In this document: in pieces, positions 29,331-54,287 of the stretch
Layout: every line of letters begins with the position of its first letter
Position numbering within the stretch: the first letter of the stretch is position 1
DNA from: Terriglobales bacterium
GTDB lineage: Bacteria > Acidobacteriota > Terriglobia > Terriglobales > Acidobacteriaceae
Direction: 5' to 3'
NCBI GenBank assembly: GCA_035937135.1
Contig: DASYVL010000055.1
Coordinates: 507 to 64,506, forward strand
DNA length: 64,000 bases
Program-made: the position numbers and the translations under genes
The notes under the pieces: generated by a model
What the model saw: only the letters and a program-made list of their open reading frames with translations
Databases searched by the model: none
What the model was told of the DNA's origin: nothing

Positions 29331-30914
29331 ATGTCCACGAAATACGACGCCATCATCATCGGTGGGGGCCACAACGGCCTGGTGACTGCCGCCTACCTGG
29401 CGCGCACCGGGAAGAAAGTCCTGGTGCTGGAGCGGCGGCACGTGCTGGGTGGTGCCGCCGTCACCGAAGAAATCTTCCCCGGATTCAAGTTCTCCGTCTG
29501 CTCCTACGTCGTGTCTCTGCTGCGGCCGGAGATCATCCGCGACCTCGACCTGCCGCGCCACGGGATGGAGATCCTGCCGCTCGATGGGACGTTCACTCCC
29601 ATGCCCTCGGGCGATTACCTGTGGCGGGTGAACGACCACGGGAAGACGCGCCGCGAGATCGCGCGCCACTCCCGGCTCGACGCCGAAGCCTACGAAGAGT
29701 TCGGCAAGGCGATGCTGGAGATGTGCAAGTTCGTGAAGCCCATCCTCAGCATGACGCCGCCCAATCCCACCAAGCTCTCGCCCAGCATGCTGAAGAAGCT
29801 GGCGTTCCTGGGCCGGCGCTTCCAGGGGCTGAGCGCCGAGGACAAGTACCGCCAGGTACAGCTCATGACCATGAGCGCGGTGGACTTTCTCGACCAGTGG
29901 TTCGAGACCGACGTGCTCAAGGCCACCATGTCCGCCTCCGGCATCATCGGGACCTTCCTGGGCGTGCGCTCGCCCGGCACCGCCTACGTGCTGCTGCACC
30001 ACTACATGGGAGAGATCGACGGCGCCTTCCGCTCCTGGGGATTCTCGCGGGGCGGAACTGGCGCCATCTCCAACGCCATCGCCGACGCCGCGCGCGAGGC
30101 GGGCGCGGAGATTCGCACCCAGGCCGGCATCGGGCGCATCCTGGTAAAAAACGGGCGCGCCGTGGGCGTGGCGCTGGAGAATGGCGACGAGTTGTTCGCC
30201 GACGTCGTTTCCTCGAGCGTGGATCCCCGGCTGACCTTCCAGCGCATGATCGAGCCTGAACACCTGCCGCCGGATTTCCTGGAAGAGGTGCGCCGCTACA
30301 AGTTCCGTGGCTCGTCGGGCAAGGTGAACCTGGCGCTCGACGCGCTGCCCGACTTCAAGTGTCTGCCCGGCCCCGGGGCGCACTTGCGCGGCGCCATCTC
30401 CATCTCGCCCAGCGTGGAGTACATGGAGCGCGCCTACGACGACGCCAAGTACGGCAACTACTCGCGCCATCCCTACATTGACGTGGTCATTCCCAGCCTG
30501 ACCGATCCCTCGGTGGCACCGCCGGGCAAGCACGTGATGTCCTGCTTCGTGCAGTACGCTCCCTACAAGCTGGCGGAGGGGAACTGGGACGAGAAGCGTG
30601 AAGCCTTCGGTGACAACGTCATCAACACCGTGGCCGAGTTTGCGCCCAACCTGAAGAACATCATTATTGGACGCCAGGTGCTGACCCCGCTCGACATGGA
30701 GCGCGACTTCGGGCTGAGCGAGGGCAACATCTTCCAGGGTGAGCTTTCGCTCGAGCAGCTTTTCTTCCTGCGCCCGGTGCCGGGATGGGCGCAGTACCGC
30801 ACGCCCATCAAGAACCTTTATATGTGCGGCTCGGCGACGCATCCGGGCGGCGGCATCATGGGCGCGCCGGGAAGGCTGGCAGCGCTCGAGATCCTCAAGG
30901 ACTGGGGCGGGTAG
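29331..30914 (+). CDS. NAD(P)/FAD-dependent oxidoreductase, phytoene-desaturase (CrtI)-like / PYROXD2-like, paralogue 1
   Basis: The dinucleotide fold is YDAIIIGGGHNGLVTAAYLARTGKKVLVLERRHVLGGAA. The C-terminal motif is LYMCGSATHPGGGIMGAPG. Confidence 0.8.
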   Translation: MSTKYDAIIIGGGHNGLVTAAYLARTGKKVLVLERRHVLGGAAVTEEIFPGFKFSVCSYVVSLLRPEIIRDLDLPRHGMEILPLDGTFTPMPSGDYLWRVNDHGKTRREIARHSRLDAEAYEEFGKAMLEMCKFVKPILSMTPPNPTKLSPSMLKKLAFLGRRFQGLSAEDKYRQVQLMTMSAVDFLDQWFETDVLKATMSASGIIGTFLGVRSPGTAYVLLHHYMGEIDGAFRSWGFSRGGTGAISNAIADAAREAGAEIRTQAGIGRILVKNGRAVGVALENGDELFADVVSSSVDPRLTFQRMIEPEHLPPDFLEEVRRYKFRGSSGKVNLALDALPDFKCLPGPGAHLRGAISISPSVEYMERAYDDAKYGNYSRHPYIDVVIPSLTDPSVAPPGKHVMSCFVQYAPYKLAEGNWDEKREAFGDNVINTVAEFAPNLKNIIIGRQVLTPLDMERDFGLSEGNIFQGELSLEQLFFLRPVPGWAQYRTPIKNLYMCGSATHPGGGIMGAPGRLAALEILKDWGG

Positions 30915-30923
30915 GCGGCCGCC

Positions 30924-32498
30924 ATGCGCGACATCGTCATCATCGGCGGAGGGCACAACGCGCTGGTCGCCGCCTTCTACTTGGCGCGCGCGGGACAGAA
31001 GCCGCTGGTGCTGGAGCGGCGCTCGGTCGCGGGCGGCGCCGCCGTCACCGAAGAGTTCCACCCGGGCTTCCGCTGCTCGGCGTTGGCGCACGCTGCCGGG
31101 CCGGTGGACGCGCGCATCCTGCGCGATATGGGTCTCGACGCCGTGGCCATGGTCCGCCCCGACCCGCGCCTGGCGGGGCTTCCCTCCCCGCCCGACGGCC
31201 GCGCCGTCGTCTTCTATGAAGACGATGCGCGCACGGCTGCGAGCATTGCCAGAGTCTCGGCGCACGACGCCAAGAGCTATCCCGAGTTCCACCGCACACT
31301 GAAGGGCCTGGCCGCAGTCGTGGCGCAGGTGTGTGCCACTACGCCGCCGGACATCGACCATCCCTCGGCGGGCGATCTTTGGGCGATGCTCAAGGCCGGG
31401 AAGGGTTTCCGCAAGCTGGGCGAGAAGGGGATGTTCCGCCTGCTGCGCTGGGGACCGATGGCGGTGGCCGACCTGGTGGCGGAGTTCTTCGAGAACGAGC
31501 TGGTGCGCGCCGCCATCGCCGCCCGCGGAATCTTTGGGACGAACTTCGGGCCGTGGTCGGCGGGCTCGAGCGCGGTGCTGCTGTTGCGCGCCGCCGCGGA
31601 TTCGCATCCCGCGGGCTCCTCGATTTTCCCCCGCGGCGGCATGGGCGCGCTCACCCAGGCCATGGCTGCGGCGGCGACGAACGCGGGCGCGGAGATCCGC
31701 ACAGGCGCCGAGGTCGCGCAGATTGCCGTGAAAGATGGCGTCGCGACCGGCGTCGTTCTGAAAAGCGGCGGAGAGATTGCGGCGAAGGCGGTCATCTCCG
31801 GCGCCGACCCCCGGCGAACCTTCCTCGGCCTGCTCGACCCGGCGCACCTTACGCCCGACTTCCTGGGGAAGATGCAGAACTACCGCGTCCACGGGACGAT
31901 GGCCAAGGTCAACCTGGCGCTTTCGGCCCTGCCGGATTTCCCGGCGCTTGCCGAAGCGGGCGCGCAGGCACTGACCGGGCGCATCCACATCGGTCCGGAG
32001 ATCGATTACCTGGAGCGCGCCTTCGACGACTCGAAGTACGGCGATTTCTCGCGCCAGCCCTATCTCGATGTGATGATTCCCAGCGTTTCGGATTCATCGC
32101 TCGCGCCCGCAGGGTCGCACGTGATGTCCGTGTGCGTGCAGTTCGCGCCCTACAAGCTGAAAAACGGCGATTGGAAGAGCCGGCACGACGAGTTGGGCGA
32201 CGTCGCGGTGAAAACCCTCGCTGCTTATGCGCCCAAACTTCCGCAGCAGATTGTAGCGCGACAGATCATCACGCCTTTGGACCTGGAAGAAAGTTACGGG
32301 CTGACCGGTGGGCACATCTTTCACGGCGAGCTGGCGCTCGACCAGCTCTTCACCATGCGTCCGCTGCTGGGCTGGGCGCGGTACGCCACGCCGATCGAGA
32401 GCCTCTATCTGTGCAGCTCCGGTACGCATCCCGGCACGGGGCTGACGGGGATTTCCGGCGCGAACGCCGCGCGGGAGATTCTGAAGCGCCTGCGGTAG
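30924..32498 (+). CDS. NAD(P)/FAD-dependent oxidoreductase, CrtI-like / PYROXD2-like, paralogue 2
   Basis: IVIIGGGHNALVAAFYLARAGQKPLVLERRSVAGGAA and the C-terminal LYLCSSGTHPGTGLTGISG are collinear with the upstream gene. Confidence 0.8.
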   Translation: MRDIVIIGGGHNALVAAFYLARAGQKPLVLERRSVAGGAAVTEEFHPGFRCSALAHAAGPVDARILRDMGLDAVAMVRPDPRLAGLPSPPDGRAVVFYEDDARTAASIARVSAHDAKSYPEFHRTLKGLAAVVAQVCATTPPDIDHPSAGDLWAMLKAGKGFRKLGEKGMFRLLRWGPMAVADLVAEFFENELVRAAIAARGIFGTNFGPWSAGSSAVLLLRAAADSHPAGSSIFPRGGMGALTQAMAAAATNAGAEIRTGAEVAQIAVKDGVATGVVLKSGGEIAAKAVISGADPRRTFLGLLDPAHLTPDFLGKMQNYRVHGTMAKVNLALSALPDFPALAEAGAQALTGRIHIGPEIDYLERAFDDSKYGDFSRQPYLDVMIPSVSDSSLAPAGSHVMSVCVQFAPYKLKNGDWKSRHDELGDVAVKTLAAYAPKLPQQIVARQIITPLDLEESYGLTGGHIFHGELALDQLFTMRPLLGWARYATPIESLYLCSSGTHPGTGLTGISGANAAREILKRLR

Positions 32499-32538
32499 CG
32501 CCGACCTCCCGCGCTACCATCGGCGGCAAGGAGACCTG

Positions 32539-33126
32539 ATGGCAATGGAAGTGAGGGTGGGCGGTCCGGCCCCCGAGTTTGTCTACATCACTGCTTCCGG
32601 CGAGCAGAAGCGTCTCTCCGCTCTCTGGGCGGGGCGGCCGGCACTGGTGCTGTGGCTGCGGCACTTCGGTTGACAGTTCTACGCCGAGATACTCGCGCAG
32701 TTGCGCGAGAAGCAAAGCGAGTTCGAGAAGCGGCGAGTCGCCCTGGCCTGCGTGGTGCAGGGCACGGCGGCGGAAGCAGCGGTCTTCTGCGGCCGGCATG
32801 GGGTGGAGGCGCTCTGCATCCCTGATCCCGAGCGCGAGAGCTACCGCGCCTTGGGCCTGGGCCGCGCCTCGTGGCGGGAGATCCTGTTCGCCTCCGCGGA
32901 CCTGAAGCGTCGCCGCGCCGAAGCCAAGCAGGCCGGATGCAGCAACAAGCTCGAGGGCGCGCGCCAGAAGCACAGCGACATCCTGCAGCTCTCCGGCGCG
33001 GCGCTGGTGGCGGCGGGTGGCACCGTCCTATGGCTGCACCGCTCGCGCCACACCGGCGACTTGCCGTCGGCGGAGGAGCTTCTGGGGATTGTTGGGAAGT
33101 TTCTACCCTCGGCGCCGGTTGCCTAA
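32539..33126 (+). CDS. Peroxiredoxin-like (AhpC/TSA_2, PRXL2-type) thioredoxin-fold protein with in-frame TGA at 32671-32673. This is a candidate selenoprotein (195 aa with U45).
   Basis: AAGGAG lies 5 nt before ATG 32539. Forty-four sense codons, MAMEVRVGGPAPEFVYITASGEQKRLSALWAGRPALVLWLRHFG, are followed by TGA. The same frame then continues as QFYAEILAQLREKQSEF... into track ORF 32701..33126. The TGA aligns with the redox Cys of the R-x-x-G-C-x-x-C motif. Confidence 0.6.
32692..32709 (+). promoter_or_regulatory. Candidate bacterial SECIS hairpin
   Basis: CUCGCGC-AGUU-GCGCGAG is a perfect 7-bp stem with a 4-nt loop containing G. It starts 18 nt after UGA 32671-32673. Confidence 0.5.
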
Positions 33127-37873: not shown

Positions 37874-38608
37874 ATGACTCCCGACGAGATCCTGCAACAG
37901 GAATTCAACCGCTGGGCCGAAGAGGGCCGCGGCGAGGAGATGGAGAAGCACCATCTCAACATCACCGAGCAGACTCTGCGGCGGATGGAGCTGCGGCCGG
38001 GCGAGCGCGTGCTCGACCTGGGCTGCGGCGCGGGTTGGGCCTCCCGCATCCTGGCGCGCCTGGTGGGCGATGGGCCGGAGGGCCACGGGCAAGTGGTGGG
38101 CGTGGACATCTCCGACGAGATGATCCGGCGGGCGCGCGCCGGCTCGCGCGATTTCGACAACCTCATGTTCGTGTGGGGCTCGGCGCAGCAGATTCCCTGG
38201 GAAGAAAACTTCTTCGACAAAGTACTGTCGGTCGAGTCCTTCTATTACTACGCCGACCAGGAGCGCGCCCTGCATGAACTCTTCCGCGTGATGGCGCCGC
38301 GCGGGCGGCTGTTCATCCTCATCAACCTATATAAGGACAATCCTTACTCGCTGCGCTGGGTGGAGGAGCTGAAAGTCCAGGTGCACGCACGCTCCGCGGC
38401 CGAGTACGTCGAGCTGCTGAAGGCTCACGCGTTCGAAGATGTGGAGGCGCAGCGCGTCCCGGACGAATCGCCGACACCGGAGGAGTACAGCGGCAAATGG
38501 TTCAAGAACGCGGCCGAGCTGCGGGAATTCAAGAAAATCGGCGCGCTGCTGCTGGTGGCGAGCAAGCCCAACCTGCGTAACCCGGCGCCGCCCTACACAA
38601 TCTACTGA
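37874..38608 (+). CDS. Class I SAM-dependent methyltransferase
   Basis: Motif I is VLDLGCGAGW. The post-I segment is VGVDISDEMI, followed by FDKVLSVESFYY and PRGRLFI. Confidence 0.8.
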   Translation: MTPDEILQQEFNRWAEEGRGEEMEKHHLNITEQTLRRMELRPGERVLDLGCGAGWASRILARLVGDGPEGHGQVVGVDISDEMIRRARAGSRDFDNLMFVWGSAQQIPWEENFFDKVLSVESFYYYADQERALHELFRVMAPRGRLFILINLYKDNPYSLRWVEELKVQVHARSAAEYVELLKAHAFEDVEAQRVPDESPTPEEYSGKWFKNAAELREFKKIGALLLVASKPNLRNPAPPYTIY

Positions 38609-38614
38609 TTAGTC

Positions 38615-38641
38615 TCTCCGCGCAGGCGCGGAGACGCGGAG
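38615..38641. repeat. GC hairpin TCTCCGCG-CAGG-CGCGGAGA followed by CGCGGAG, a variant of the octamer-repeat family and a possible terminator
   Basis: The 8-bp perfect stem spans 38615-38634. CGCGGAGA-CGCGGAG mimics the CACGGAGA-CACAGAG units. It lies between convergent genes. Confidence 0.4.
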
Positions 38642-38676
38642 TTCTCTTGCAAGAATCCAGAACCGCGAGAGGGAAC

Positions 38677-39423
38677 TCACTTCCCGGCCTGCTGCCGGAG
38701 CTTGTCCAGCGCCTGCTGCATCTCTGGGGTGATCTTGACCTCGCGCTGCTCGCCCCCCATCTGCCGCGCCGACCACTCGATGGCCCAGTTGCTGCCTCGC
38801 GCGTCGAAGCTTGCTGCGTACGGACCGGCCGGCCGCTTCTCAACCTTGCCGGAGCCGTTGAACGGGCTGAAGGGCTTCATGGGAATCTTGATGACGTCGC
38901 CGCCACTCACGCCCGCGGCGCCGCCGGGCACGGTGATTGAGCCCGATCCTAGGCCGAATCCCGCGCTCACGCCCGGGTCCGCGCGGATGGTGAACTCGAT
39001 CGACGGACGCTCCGCTTCCGGGGTCGCAATCTCCAGGGTGAGTTGGCCGTCTTTCAGGACGCCTACCAGCGGGAACTTTCTCTTGGGATTCAAGTCGGTC
39101 ACCTTGCCGCCGACCTTGGGACTGAAAGACATGCTCCCCAGGGACACCGACGGCAGATTTTCGACCGTCAGCTCCGAGTTGTAGTTCAGCTCGATCTCGC
39201 CGGTTGCGTTGCCCTCCTTGTCCAACACGAACCAAAACTCGAAGTCCGCGCTACGCGTCAACTGGCGGAAGCGGTCCTTCATCGGGACCTCGCTGGCCTT
39301 GCCCTTCCCCTCCCAGTAGCCTGCGGTGGTGGTACGACCGCAGCCCATCAGCAGGGCCAGAAGCAACATGGCAGCAGCAGCCCGCGCATAAACGCCGAAC
39401 ACGGGCCGGATGTGTGTCGTCAT
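38677..39423 (-). CDS. Hypothetical lipoprotein
   Basis: The lipobox is LLALLMGCG. Codon usage looks coding. I recognised no domain. Confidence 0.65.
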   Translation of the reverse strand: MTTHIRPVFGVYARAAAAMLLLALLMGCGRTTTAGYWEGKGKASEVPMKDRFRQLTRSADFEFWFVLDKEGNATGEIELNYNSELTVENLPSVSLGSMSFSPKVGGKVTDLNPKRKFPLVGVLKDGQLTLEIATPEAERPSIEFTIRADPGVSAGFGLGSGSITVPGGAAGVSGGDVIKIPMKPFSPFNGSGKVEKRPAGPYAASFDARGSNWAIEWSARQMGGEQREVKITPEMQQALDKLRQQAGK

Positions 39424-40206: not shown

Positions 40207-40515
40207 ATGCCTGATTTCATTAGAATCGCTGCCAAGGCGGACCTGCCCGGCGACGGCGAGGCCAAAGAGTTCACGGTAGGCGAGAAGATCGTCTGCGTGG
40301 CCAACGTCGAAGGCCGGCTGTGCGCGCTGGACAACGTCTGTCTGCATCGCGGCGGGCCGCTCGGACAGGGCGTGATCATGGACGGAACCGTCATCTGTCC
40401 CTGGCATGGCTGGCAGTACAACCCGCAGAGCGGCGAGGCGGCGCAGAACCCCTCCCTCAAGGTCGCCGTCTATCCCATCAAGATCGAGGGCGACGATGTA
40501 CTGATTGAGATTTGA
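40207..40515 (+). CDS. Small Rieske [2Fe-2S] protein (NirD / oxygenase-ferredoxin-like)
   Basis: CLHRGGPL...CPWHGWQY is the Rieske motif. The 102-aa single-domain protein ends in VYPIKIEGDDVLIEI. Confidence 0.8.
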   Translation: MPDFIRIAAKADLPGDGEAKEFTVGEKIVCVANVEGRLCALDNVCLHRGGPLGQGVIMDGTVICPWHGWQYNPQSGEAAQNPSLKVAVYPIKIEGDDVLIEI

Positions 40516-46636: not shown

Positions 46637-47890
46637 TCAGGCGGAATAGACGCGGCCGTGATTGACCTTGTGGCTGAGCGCCGCGGCCATCTGGTCAATG
46701 TCGGCCGGGGCGATGGTGCAGAGGCCCGCGTCCTCGAGGAAGTTGGGCTTGCCGCGGCCGACGGCGTCCCGCCGCATCTGCACCAGCATGGCCTGGACCA
46801 CGTTGGGGTCGTACAGTTTGGGGCTCAGCTTGACGATCTCATTCAGCGTCGCGCCCAGCGACATGGACTGCCGGTAAGAACGCTCGCTGGTCATGGCGTC
46901 GAAGGTATCCGCCAGGGCCACGATGCGGACCGGCTCGGAAACTTCGTCATGGGAGAGGTGGTCGGGATAGCCGGAGCCGTCGGAGCGCTCGTGGTGCCAG
47001 CGCACCACCTCGGCGATGCCCTTCCACGGGAACTGCACTCCGGAGACGATCTGGTGTCCGATGATGGTGTGGTCGGCCATCTCCCGGAACTCCTCCGGGC
47101 GCAGGGCCGCGGGCTTGTTGAAGAGGGCCTTGTCCACGATGACCTTGCCGATGTCGTGCAGGTAGCCGGCGGCGCGCAAGCCCGAGACCTGGGTCTCATC
47201 CAGGCCGAGGCCGGCGCCGATGGCCGCGGCGTAGCGTCCGACGCGTAGCGAGTGTCCGCGGGTGTGAGTGTCCTTCACGTCAATGGCGGTGGCGAAGGCT
47301 TCCAGCGTCTGGTCGTAGAAGTTGTGCAGCGAAGCCAGAAGCCGCAGGTTCTCAGAAACCCGCTGCTGCAAGGAATACGAAAGCGTGTGATTGTGCACCG
47401 CCAGGGCCACGTAGTGGGAGAGCAGGTGCAGGGCCTCGAACTCCTCTTCGGCGTAGAGCGCATCGCCCTCGCGGCGGCCGAGCGTGATCGCTCCCACCAG
47501 GCGTGAACCCACCTTGAGCGGGGCCACGCACTTGAAGAGCTCCGGCGCCACGTTGCCGTTCGAGCTGAACAGGGTCTCGCAGCTCTTGGCGTTCACCGCC
47601 TGCGGCATTCGTGCGCTGGAGAGGGTGTGCACGTGCTTGGGCAGAAGCGGGATCACCGCCGGCTCCGCGAACAGGGCGAAGCCGTGCGCCGCCACCGAGG
47701 AGAGCATGGCGGGCTTGTCGGTGAAGGTGAAGAGGGCAGCCTCCTGCGCGGCCACGGCCTCCATCAGCAGGGCGAGCATGGAGCGCGCCCGCTGCGGGAA
47801 GTCGCGGTCGGCGGTCATCTCCGGACCGAGATCGGCCAGCGCCTGGAAGGTTTGCAGCAGGCGCCGAATGTTGTTGGACCTCACGGCCAC
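46637..47890 (-). CDS. HD-GYP domain phosphodiesterase with an N-terminal GAF-like sensor
   Basis: HSLRVGRYA, YLHDIGK and RWHHERSDGSGYP are the HD and GYP signatures. The start is GTG. Confidence 0.85.
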   Translation of the reverse strand: MAVRSNNIRRLLQTFQALADLGPEMTADRDFPQRARSMLALLMEAVAAQEAALFTFTDKPAMLSSVAAHGFALFAEPAVIPLLPKHVHTLSSARMPQAVNAKSCETLFSSNGNVAPELFKCVAPLKVGSRLVGAITLGRREGDALYAEEEFEALHLLSHYVALAVHNHTLSYSLQQRVSENLRLLASLHNFYDQTLEAFATAIDVKDTHTRGHSLRVGRYAAAIGAGLGLDETQVSGLRAAGYLHDIGKVIVDKALFNKPAALRPEEFREMADHTIIGHQIVSGVQFPWKGIAEVVRWHHERSDGSGYPDHLSHDEVSEPVRIVALADTFDAMTSERSYRQSMSLGATLNEIVKLSPKLYDPNVVQAMLVQMRRDAVGRGKPNFLEDAGLCTIAPADIDQMAAALSHKVNHGRVYSA

Positions 47891-53215: not shown

Positions 53216-53668
53216 CTATTGCAGCGCTTTATCCAGGATGGCGGAGATCTTCGATTCCTCTACTTCGCTGGCCAGGCTGTAGCGGGTCTTGCCGTTCTTG
53301 TCCAGCACCACCACGTGGGGGATGAAGCCTTCGTAGTACTTCTCGACCAGCTTCTGCTGGTCCTTGGAGCGCTTCTTGTCCAGGTCGATGATGACGAACT
53401 GCACCCGGCCTTTGTACTTCTCGTACAAGCTGACGGAGCGGCGAGCCTGCCGCTTGGAGTTGAATCAACCCTCGCCCACCATGAGGATGTAGTTGGGCTT
53501 GCCGGCCACAGGGCCGTCCTCCATCTGGTCGCCGGTGATGAGCGGGCCGTCCTCGCTGTCGCTCGAGTAATCGAGCTTGGGATTGAGCTTCAGGTTCTCG
53601 GCGGCGTTACTTCTTGCCGCAAGCGCCAGGCTCGCGAGCGCCAGCGCCAGCATGAGATTTCTCTTCAC
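53216..53668 (-). CDS. Exported thioredoxin-like protein with in-frame TGA (53467-53465) at the first Cys of the CxxC position. This is a candidate selenoprotein (150 aa with U68).
   Basis: AAGGAGGAG lies 6 nt before GTG 53668. The signal peptide is MKRNLMLALALASLALAARSNA. ...KPNYILMVGEG is followed by TGA, and the same frame continues as FNSKRQARRSVSLYEKYKGRVQFVIIDLDKK... This joins track ORFs 53465..53668 and 53216..53428. The layout matches the thioredoxin pattern hydrophobic strand-W-C-x-x-C-K ... KV.FV.VDVD ... IP..V.LD..G. Confidence 0.6.
53437..53454 (-). promoter_or_regulatory. Candidate bacterial SECIS hairpin
   Basis: On the minus strand, UGA-UUCAACUCCA-AGCGGC-AGGCUC-GCCGCU is present. 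The 6-bp stem and 6-nt loop with GG start 10 nt after the UGA. Confidence 0.5.
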
Positions 53669-54287
53669 CGAACTCCTCCTTCAGCTTGAGATCGAATCCG
53701 TCCTGCTCGACCTGCGCCCGCTCCGTGCGATAGAGGCCGGCAGCCTGCTTCAGCGTCTCCGCGAAACCGGGCTTGTCGCCGGTCGCCTTCTCCGGGAAGT
53801 AGGTGCCTCCAAGATACAGCTTGCCGCAGGGCGTGAGGAAGCCGGTCAGCGGGATGCCGGCGGGAAAATTCTTCAGCGCGTGCGCCCGCTCCAGCTTCGC
53901 CGTCAGCCGGGGCCGCGCGTCGTAGTCGAGCTTGACCGCCACGAAGTTGGCGTTGATGTAGTCGGCGATCTCCGGTCGGGTATAGCTTTCGCGGTCCATG
54001 CGGTCGCAGGTCGGGCACCAGGTCGCGCCCACGTCCAGCAGGATGGGCCGGTCGAGTTGCCGAGCCCGGCGAAAGGCCTCCGCGCCCCACGGATACCAAT
54101 CCACCGGCTGACTCGCCGCCCGCTTCAGGTACGGCGAACTCTGCCCGCGCAGATGATTTCCCGGCTGCGACGACCCGGCAAACACCAGCGCCGACGCCAG
54201 CAACAGCCCTCCGAGAATCCCCAGCCGCCGGCCGCGCACACCACTCTCCCCGCCATGAGATGGACGAAGAAGGAAAAAGTTACGCAT
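53607..54287 (-). CDS. Thioredoxin-domain protein of the DUF255 (YyaL N-terminal / SPATA20-like) type
   Basis: SSPYLKRAASQPVDWYPWGAEAFRRARQLDRPILLDVGATWCPTCDRMDRESY...NANFVAVKLDYDARP matches the family. Its 3' end overlaps the next gene by about 60 nt. The start is uncertain. Confidence 0.75.
   Translation of the reverse strand: MRNFFLLRPSHGGESGVRGRRLGILGGLLLASALVFAGSSQPGNHLRGQSSPYLKRAASQPVDWYPWGAEAFRRARQLDRPILLDVGATWCPTCDRMDRESYTRPEIADYINANFVAVKLDYDARPRLTAKLERAHALKNFPAGIPLTGFLTPCGKLYLGGTYFPEKATGDKPGFAETLKQAAGLYRTERAQVEQDGFDLKLKEEFGEEKSHAGAGAREPGACGKK

Follow-up and report, generated by a model that had tools for sequence, protein, structure and literature searches.

Among the selenocysteine (Sec)-containing proteins predicted from bacteria, one family is designated as "AhpC/TSA family protein" (pfam13911/cd02970) and has a UxxS motif, in which U is Sec. 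It was first predicted from the delta-symbionts of Olavius algarvensis (Zhang & Gladyshev 2007, PMC1976440), and the family is tabulated in PMC9312934 and PMC13188914. One example in the deep-Sep supplement is WP_276571921.1, which includes the segments VFVRHFG-U-LICRQQ and VVIGNGAP (PMC12013277). Here, a gene related to this family is described from a 64,000-nt stretch of DNA from a Terriglobales bacterium (assembly GCA_035937135.1, contig DASYVL010000055.1, positions 507 to 64,506 of the forward strand), which is designated as the window. The gene is at positions 32539-33126 of the window on the plus strand, contains one in-frame UGA codon, and is very probably a genuine selenoprotein gene; the UGA and a hairpin downstream of it are conserved in many soil Acidobacteria. 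Its product represents a divergent Terriglobia subfamily, a sister clade, of the AhpC-TSA_2 selenoproteins, which had been predicted before, and is not a new kind of system.

The window protein shares with the AhpC/TSA family the same Pfam domain and the position of Sec, which follows the beta-1 strand in R-H-F-G-U. For Pfam, NCBIfam, and BLASTP comparisons, Cys was substituted at the UGA of the joined 195-aa product. BLASTP aligned it with WP_276571921.1 with the E-value 4e-19 over 161 residues, and the Sec columns were matched, although the identity was only 29%. A clade of metagenomic homologues, designated as clade B, belongs to the AhpC/TSA family and has a hairpin at the position common to the window gene. 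In contrast to the AhpC/TSA family, the window protein has U-Q-F-Y at the Sec site, VVQG in place of IGNG, and an extra invariant Cys71. It belongs to a separate clade, designated as clade A, which is composed exclusively of TGA forms and is so far found only in Acidobacteriota (Terriglobia). Genes of the window type are, in addition, cut short by current annotation pipelines.

The best and only NCBIfam match was NF040769 "SelL-related redox protein", a group with the thioredoxin fold of the Prx-like2 type, and it covered 170 of the 173 profile positions. The U-to-C product scored 111.1 bits and narrowly missed the curated cut-off, which is 120. For WP_276571921.1, an accepted Sec member treated alike, the score was 119.1, and both proteins thus lie just under the cut-off. 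Shchedrina and colleagues are said to have described in 2007 a UxxU diselenide motif from selenoprotein L (SelL) proper, in contrast to the single Sec of the window protein. Selenoprotein L is a peroxiredoxin (Prx)-like protein from eukaryotes and marine bacteria (PMC2398784).

The nearest solved structure, by profile and by fold, is human PRXL2B (prostamide/prostaglandin F synthase, 9us9/9usa), a member of the PRXL2/SelU group. PRXL2B (9us9) was the one solved relative in the family-profile search, with the E-value 1.9e-7, and the first Cys of its CxxC motif is aligned at the UGA column. It was also ranked first by Foldseek (24% identity, TM-scores of 0.62/0.73), followed mostly by Prx, Bcp, and ResA proteins at ranks 2-50. 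Unlike the window protein, PRXL2B has Cys, in a CxxC motif, and functions in the reduction of prostaglandin in eukaryotes, and no evidence for such a substrate was seen for the window protein.

The coding sequence at 32539..33126 (+) comprises 195 codons including Sec45, plus a TAA stop codon. A Shine-Dalgarno-like AAGGAG (32528..32533, +), read from the sequence, ends 5 nt before the ATG. The ATG at 32539 opens 44 sense codons, MAMEVRVGGPAPEFVYITASGEQKRLSALWAGRPALVLWLRHFG, which end with WLRHFG before the TGA at 32671-32673 (+), and 150 more sense codons follow in the same frame to the TAA at 33124-33126. This TGA is the sole interruption of the 195-codon frame. It corresponds to the Cys column of homologues, is kept in relatives, and is assigned to the putative Sec45. 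In the mechanical list of open reading frames (ORFs), the same frame is represented by 32539..32673 (44 aa) and 32701..33126 (141 aa, with a TTG start), and this TTG falls inside the hairpin at 32692-32709 which is described below. The first-pass annotation of the window had proposed a Prx-like selenoprotein gene at this place; its coordinates, AAGGAG, ATG, 44 codons, TGA, 195-aa joined frame, and hairpin were all confirmed.

The Prx-like character of the product was borne out by the family comparisons. The joined translation matched Pfam AhpC-TSA_2 (PF13911) with 52.9 bits against the cut-off of 27 (5.7e-14), and residues 54-171 span the whole profile (positions 1-114 of 114). Pfam AhpC-TSA (PF00578) matched residues 7-110, spanning the UGA, with 31.5 bits against the cut-off of 26. 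The AlphaFold2 model, built on the alignment, has a predicted local distance difference test score (pLDDT) of 92.7 and a predicted template modeling score (pTM) of 0.89. It shows one thioredoxin-fold domain that is continuous across residue 45, and this residue is in the loop between the strand 35-39 and the helix 47-64, the canonical redox-active position. The product is best explained as a cytoplasmic 195-residue thioredoxin-fold oxidoreductase of the PRX_like2/AhpC-TSA_2 ("SelL-related") group. Assignment as a canonical peroxiredoxin was considered and rejected. The overall fold is similar to those of canonical Prx, Bcp/PrxQ, and the Sec-containing Prx of Eubacterium acidaminophilum, but the window protein is without the PxxxT/SxxC(U) motif; in L38-W-L-R-H42-F-G-U45, Leu38 is at position -7 and His42 is at position -3 relative to the Sec.

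The first-pass annotation had placed the UGA at the nucleophilic Cys of an RxxGCxxC motif. The Cys column is correct, while the second Cys of this motif is not applicable: the nearest relatives have RHFG-[U/C]-x-F-Y, and the window protein, with U-Q-F-Y, has Tyr and not Cys or Ser at position +3. The UxxS/UxxC motif, which defines the AhpC/TSA subfamily in reviews, is therefore not found in the window protein. Clade A is characterized by U-[QPT]-F-[YCF], the peptide LAQLRE which encodes the hairpin, VVQG instead of IGNG, and the invariant Cys71 and Cys84. One subclade in clade A (L069, L097, L100, and L146) has U-P-F-C, a UxxC motif, in place of U-x-F-Y. Judging from these sequences, the Cys at +3 appears to have been gained or lost within clade A, which would bear on the resolution of the selenenyl intermediate. 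Clade B has the motif WLRHFG-U-[MIL]-F-C followed by IGNG (UxxC; WLRHFG-U-MFCREQ), and consists of the loci L032, L034, L038, L039, L043, L080, L082, L101, L102, L123, and L130.

A protein search of 5.8 billion proteins revealed 105 homologues. About 70 of the closest ones (~50-91% identity) appear in the databases without exception as C-terminal fragments of 124-149 aa, and these clusters agree with the expectation of the first-pass annotation that gene callers would truncate the gene. One of the fragment calls is the NCBI entry "AhpC/TSA family protein" of 142 aa from a Terriglobales metagenome-assembled genome (MAG). Homologues at greater distance have lengths of 170-205 aa. In each of the 17 full-length homologues aligned, the UGA column, which had been predicted to be a Cys column, is occupied by the Cys of WLRHFG-C.

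The DNA of the "truncated" relatives has an in-frame TGA at the same site. Among species-representative genomes, TGA is present in all 7 carriers from Acidobacteriota/Terriglobia, and TGC is present in all 11 homologue loci examined from Spirochaetota, Bacteroidota, Ignavibacteriota, Vulcanimicrobiota, and Dormibacterota. Clade A has so far been found only as the TGA form, and no Cys form was seen above ~50% identity. One TGA form, L003 (GCA_035515715.1, DATJAZ010000032.1; protein P0065), is labeled at NCBI as the archaeon "Candidatus Nitrosotalea sp.". Its neighbors (PadR, MacB/FtsX, RND adaptor, and DUF2089) match the bacterial locus L005 nearly gene for gene, and therefore, the contig is probably mis-binned.

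Metagenome contigs were scanned with a pattern that includes only the upstream peptide x-W-[L/F]-R-H-F-G and any TRR codon, and decay to TAA or TAG was therefore detectable. Every true homologue has TGA, and none has TAA, TAG, or TGG at this position; all 47 matches with TAA, TAG, or TGG were chance matches without homologous continuation. In total, 47 distinct TGA-form sequences, 36 from clade A and 11 from clade B, were recovered with the frame open on both sides. Neither TAA, TAG, nor a frameshift was observed at the site among homologues. The TGA forms reach down to ~62% amino-acid identity within clade A, in addition to the second clade. Among the 36 clade-A sequences, the mean pairwise differences at the three codon positions are 0.30/0.21/0.56 upstream of the UGA (33 codons) and 0.24/0.20/0.48 downstream of it. 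This codon-position bias on both sides of the UGA indicates that both segments evolve as coding sequence.

Downstream of the UGA, a hairpin with the sequence CUCGCGC-AGUU-GCGCGAG is present at 32692-32709 (+). The perfect 7-bp stem (32692-32698/32703-32709) begins 18 nt 3' of the UGA and is closed by the apical loop AGUU (32699-32702). It is assigned as a bacterial selenocysteine insertion sequence (SECIS) element based on folding, consensus, and covariation. The bacterial SECIS (bSECIS) consensus has an apical loop of 3-9 nt and a stem of 4-16 bp; G is within the first two positions of the loop, usually followed by G or U; the distance from UGA to the loop is 16-37 nt; and the minimum free energy (MFE) is -7.5 kcal/mol or lower (PMC13188914). 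The window hairpin agrees with this consensus in all four respects, with the 4-nt loop AGUU (G at position 2, then U), 7 bp, 25 nt, and -12.0 kcal/mol, and the geometry proposed in the first-pass annotation is thus supported. When the isolated 18-mer was shuffled, 1 of 200 shuffles folded as well. The wider segment of 71 nt around the hairpin folds no better than shuffles (z = 0.10), which is uninformative, and only the isolated hairpin stands out. In the window, whose GC content is 65.6%, 1.9% of all TGA triplets have a perfect hairpin of 7 bp or more at a similar distance downstream. The hairpin as an observation on one sequence is only suggestive, and the case rests on comparative evidence.

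Covariation was analyzed with 39 TGA-form sequences, which were picked without reference to the hairpin and aligned without gaps. The cells of the stem are paired at 97.8%, and at 5 of the 7 pairs, both sides have changed. The observed covariation score was not reached in any of 500 shuffles, and when the partner was slid, only 16-68% were paired. One compensatory example is CUCACGC/GCGUGAG, in which G-C is replaced by A-U, coupling an Ala-to-Thr change with a synonymous change of Arg. In L014, with CUCAUGC/GCAUGAG, the peptide LAQLRE is changed to LMQLHE and both pairs are retained. In 3 clade-B sequences (L039, L080, and L130), the AGUU loop is kept while the outer pairs are swapped (G-C, C-G).

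Codon usage also indicates constraint on the hairpin. In the 36 clade-A sequences, the hairpin codons +8 to +12 are frozen, and synonymous variation is absent at 4 of the 6 hairpin codons. Leu(+10) is encoded by the otherwise rare UUG, Gln(+9) by CAG, and Glu(+12) by GAG, and codon +8 ends with G, each in 36/36 sequences. Arg(+11) is encoded only by CGC or CGU in this clade. Other invariant residues (G-1, R-4, L-5, G+30, and G+40) show a third-position entropy of 1.1-1.6 bits.

In 42 of the 47 TGA forms, a hairpin with a G-containing loop and no fewer than 6 uninterrupted base pairs was observed at a consistent position. The same type of hairpin was observed in 4 of the 11 TGC forms, at scattered positions. 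The mean local folding energy is -15.2 kcal/mol for the TGA forms versus -10.4 kcal/mol for the TGC forms (p = 3e-4). The first-pass annotation had suggested the comparison of orthologues; the TGA is accompanied by a conserved, covarying hairpin, while the homologues from other phyla have TGC without a consistent hairpin. These comparative data, rather than single-sequence folding, place the hairpin far beyond chance.

The hairpins of clade B are at the same place and are of several types: one with the AGUU loop, one with a GUU loop on an 8-bp stem, and one with GC-AGGUC(A)-GC. The GC-AGGUC-GC loops, which are present in some clade-B relatives, resemble the loop of E. coli fdhF. As in the bacterial SECIS elements of the E. 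coli fdhF and Moorella types, the stem-loop of the window gene is inside the coding sequence just 3' of the UGA and has a small apical loop with G-U. It differs from them in being without an evident bulged U or a long lower stem.

Several observations weigh against the assignment of this gene as a selenoprotein gene. One stem mismatch is present in 5 of the 47 TGA forms. The hairpin is in the conserved peptide LAQLRE, and its conservation is thus partly at the protein level. Neither a SECIS match nor any other credible match was found in Rfam, for the whole window at the gathering threshold or for both hairpin regions, the second of which is in the gene described below, at E-values up to 10. 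This result is expected from the poor coverage of bacterial SECIS elements in Rfam, a gap which has been noted by others (bioRxiv 10.64898/2026.04.03.716425). No tRNA gene was detected with ARAGORN in the 64-kb window and 12 related loci, and no match to SelA, SelB, or SelD was found by tblastn with approximate E. coli queries in the window and ~146 related loci, a result which does not bear on the rest of the genome.

Reading of the UGA as an amino acid other than Sec is quite improbable. In such a case, Trp, Cys, or Gly would be inserted by a near-cognate or suppressor tRNA, or Cys would be inserted through tRNA(Sec), and the hairpin would act as a stimulator. The null results for the Sec machinery in the window and the related loci searched are in its favor, and so is the analogous TGA of the second family described below, which was translated as W by one gene caller (P0106). 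However, UGA is the commonest stop codon in the window and ends 27 of the 56 putative genes; the code is therefore standard, and the codon is not reassigned. The site is that of the catalytic Cys, where Sec/Cys exchange is a known pattern of selenoproteins (PMC1794560, PMC13188914), and the loop has the G-U expected by the bSECIS model. Furthermore, the known selenoproteins already listed include one from the same family whose Sec occupies this site.

Selenoproteins are also on record for relatives of the source organism. For the phylum Acidobacteria, three families of selenoproteins have been reported (PMC1794560), and Occallatibacter riparius, a cultured species of Terriglobales, has AhpD-like, deiodinase-like, and FdhA selenoproteins (PMC12013277). 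The presence of a second gene with a conserved UGA and a hairpin in the window suggests that the source genome decodes Sec.

True termination at the UGA carries a very small probability. It would imply that the 44-aa peptide, the 141-aa protein from TTG 32701, or both are real products, with the hairpin functioning in, for example, mRNA stability, translational coupling, or attenuation. Both ORFs do exist mechanically, and the TTG within the hairpin means that the structure could in principle regulate re-initiation. The 141-aa fragment, however, is without strands 1-3 and the active-site loop of what AlphaFold2 models as a single domain, and in other phyla, the homologues are undivided and full-length and have Cys at this codon. 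The loop and spacing of the hairpin fit the SECIS consensus, and the hairpin of the related clade, which differs in sequence, keeps the position and the G-containing loop. A pseudogene or nonsense allele, in which a Cys codon (TGC/TGT) was changed to TGA with subsequent decay or by sequencing error, is hardly credible: TGC to TGA is a single-base change and the database entries show only the C-terminal fragment, but the same TGA is shared by the 47 distinct sequences from two clades, other stops (TAA and TAG included) and frameshifts are all absent among homologues, substitution is purifying and codon-position-dependent on either side, and the sequence divergence and differing contexts rule out a single clonal contaminant.

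With 32539-33126 read as a selenoprotein gene, we infer a SelB-dependent insertion of Sec and a catalytic role for Sec45. Codon 45 (UGA 32671-32673) would be translated as Sec. The hairpin at 32692-32709, with the invariant A-G-U-U loop starting 25 nt past the UGA, would act as the bacterial SECIS element and tether the SelB-GTP-Sec-tRNA(Sec) complex to the approaching ribosome, so that Sec would be inserted in place of termination by release factor 2. Sec45 at the N-terminal end of helix 1 would then presumably be the attacking selenolate, which reduces a peroxide, a disulfide, or a similar oxidized substrate. It is possible, though rather doubtful, that the Terriglobia clade is a mechanistically distinct "1-Sec" branch of PRX_like2, mostly with U-x-F-Y and with another resolving partner. 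The candidates for the partner in this "1-Sec" branch are Cys71 or Cys84, both invariant in the clade, or a low-molecular-weight thiol.

Upstream of the selenoprotein gene, two genes of the flavin adenine dinucleotide (FAD) amine-oxidase family are present at 29331-30914 and 30924-32498 on the plus strand (Pfam Amino_oxidase, DAO, and NAD_binding_8). The second of them ends 40 nt upstream of the start of the selenoprotein gene on the same strand, and the three genes probably constitute one operon. A glyoxalase-fold gene is further upstream of the amine-oxidase pair. The arrangement with the amine-oxidase genes is found only in the close relatives L002, L006, L007, L008, L122, L133, and L140, and not in the rest of clade A. 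The gene neighborhood is little guide to the function. It was also considered whether the Prx-like protein is functionally coupled with the upstream amine oxidases by removing the H2O2 which they generate, but this stays speculation because the synteny is confined to close relatives and is absent across clade A. On the downstream side, the TAA stop codon at 33124-33126 overlaps the stop codon (33123-33125, -) of a convergent gene for the alpha subunit of a Rieske ring-hydroxylating oxygenase, and there is no intergenic terminator between them.

The window was screened for other in-frame TGA junctions. Among 18 candidates, only the one at 53467 (-) survived. The gene, at 53216..53668 (-), is probably a second selenoprotein gene and encodes a secreted thioredoxin-like protein. 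It has a GTG start at 53668, the TGA at 53467-53465, and a TAG stop at 53218-53216. The product has a signal-peptide-like N-terminus followed by NYILMVGEG-U-FNSK (GEG-U-FNS), in which the motif is UxxS. Weak Pfam matches to Thioredoxin_8 and Thioredoxin_2 extend over the UGA. A SECIS-like hairpin, AGCGGC-AGGCUC-GCCGCU, is at 53437..53454 (-), with -10.2 kcal/mol and a UGA-to-loop distance of 16 nt. A DsbH/DUF255 thioredoxin-like gene (53607-54287) is immediately upstream of this gene, and its end is overlapped by this gene over ~60 nt.

More than 3000 homologues of the second gene were found, many of them labeled as Acidobacteria or Terriglobales, and the best 120 of them, those listed, are full-length. 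The UGA corresponds to the conserved Cys of CxxS (GEG-C-[FY]-N-S) in 12 of the 13 aligned homologues, and the 13th, P0106, itself has TGA. P0106 (locus L147), the closest homologue with 73% identity, has the identical hairpin and an intact frame. The database protein of P0106 (JGI contig Ga0672924_0410447) has Trp at the TGA position, which is not a translation with table 11. The gene caller evidently read the UGA as a sense codon on the short contig, and this masks the likely Sec codon. Another homologue, at position 3187 of L148, has TGT (Cys) with the exact SECIS-like hairpin, as compared to TGA in the window and at position 820 of L147. L148 may represent a recent switch from Sec to Cys, or from Cys to Sec, with a "fossil" SECIS element. 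The more distant homologue L149 has TGC, and the hairpin is absent.

At least ~70 public protein clusters, including proteins from NCBI-annotated MAGs, represent this gene by fragments of 124-149 aa without the active site. A specific profile combined with the conserved SECIS element (stem, AGUU loop, and stem, 18 nt past the UGA) would allow annotation pipelines to repair them. The AhpC-TSA_2 selenoprotein family now includes a large clade from Terriglobia, where Sec is apparently fixed. Two candidates in one window suggest that selenium use in soil Acidobacteria is undercounted. If the "1-Sec" branch and the second gene with UxxS are both true, annotation would systematically overlook a considerable selenoproteome in the largely aerobic soil Acidobacteria. 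Such a selenoproteome would be at odds with the prevailing opinion that selenoproteins are seldom retained in aerobes (PMC13188914). With its strict covariation and its rare UUG codon, which is frozen, the hairpin is also a clean natural case of RNA-level constraint inside a coding sequence.

The other TGA junctions in the window were rejected. The junction at 40513 (+) separates a complete Rieske ferredoxin from a YdjM membrane protein, and that at 46639 (-) is between two adjacent genes in the same frame. The remaining junctions were short, without a hairpin, or antisense to called genes, apart from the one at 38606 (+), the stop codon of a methyltransferase gene. The sequence behind this stop is not protein-like and contains a likely terminator hairpin, with convergent genes on either side. 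At 38606-38650 (+), an 8-bp hairpin, tctccgcg-CAGG-cgcggaga, is 17 nt past the TGA stop of the class-I methyltransferase gene 37874-38608, and faces the convergent ORF 38677-39423, which is without a Pfam match. Because the in-frame continuation is not protein-like, this hairpin is probably a bidirectional terminator and not a SECIS element.

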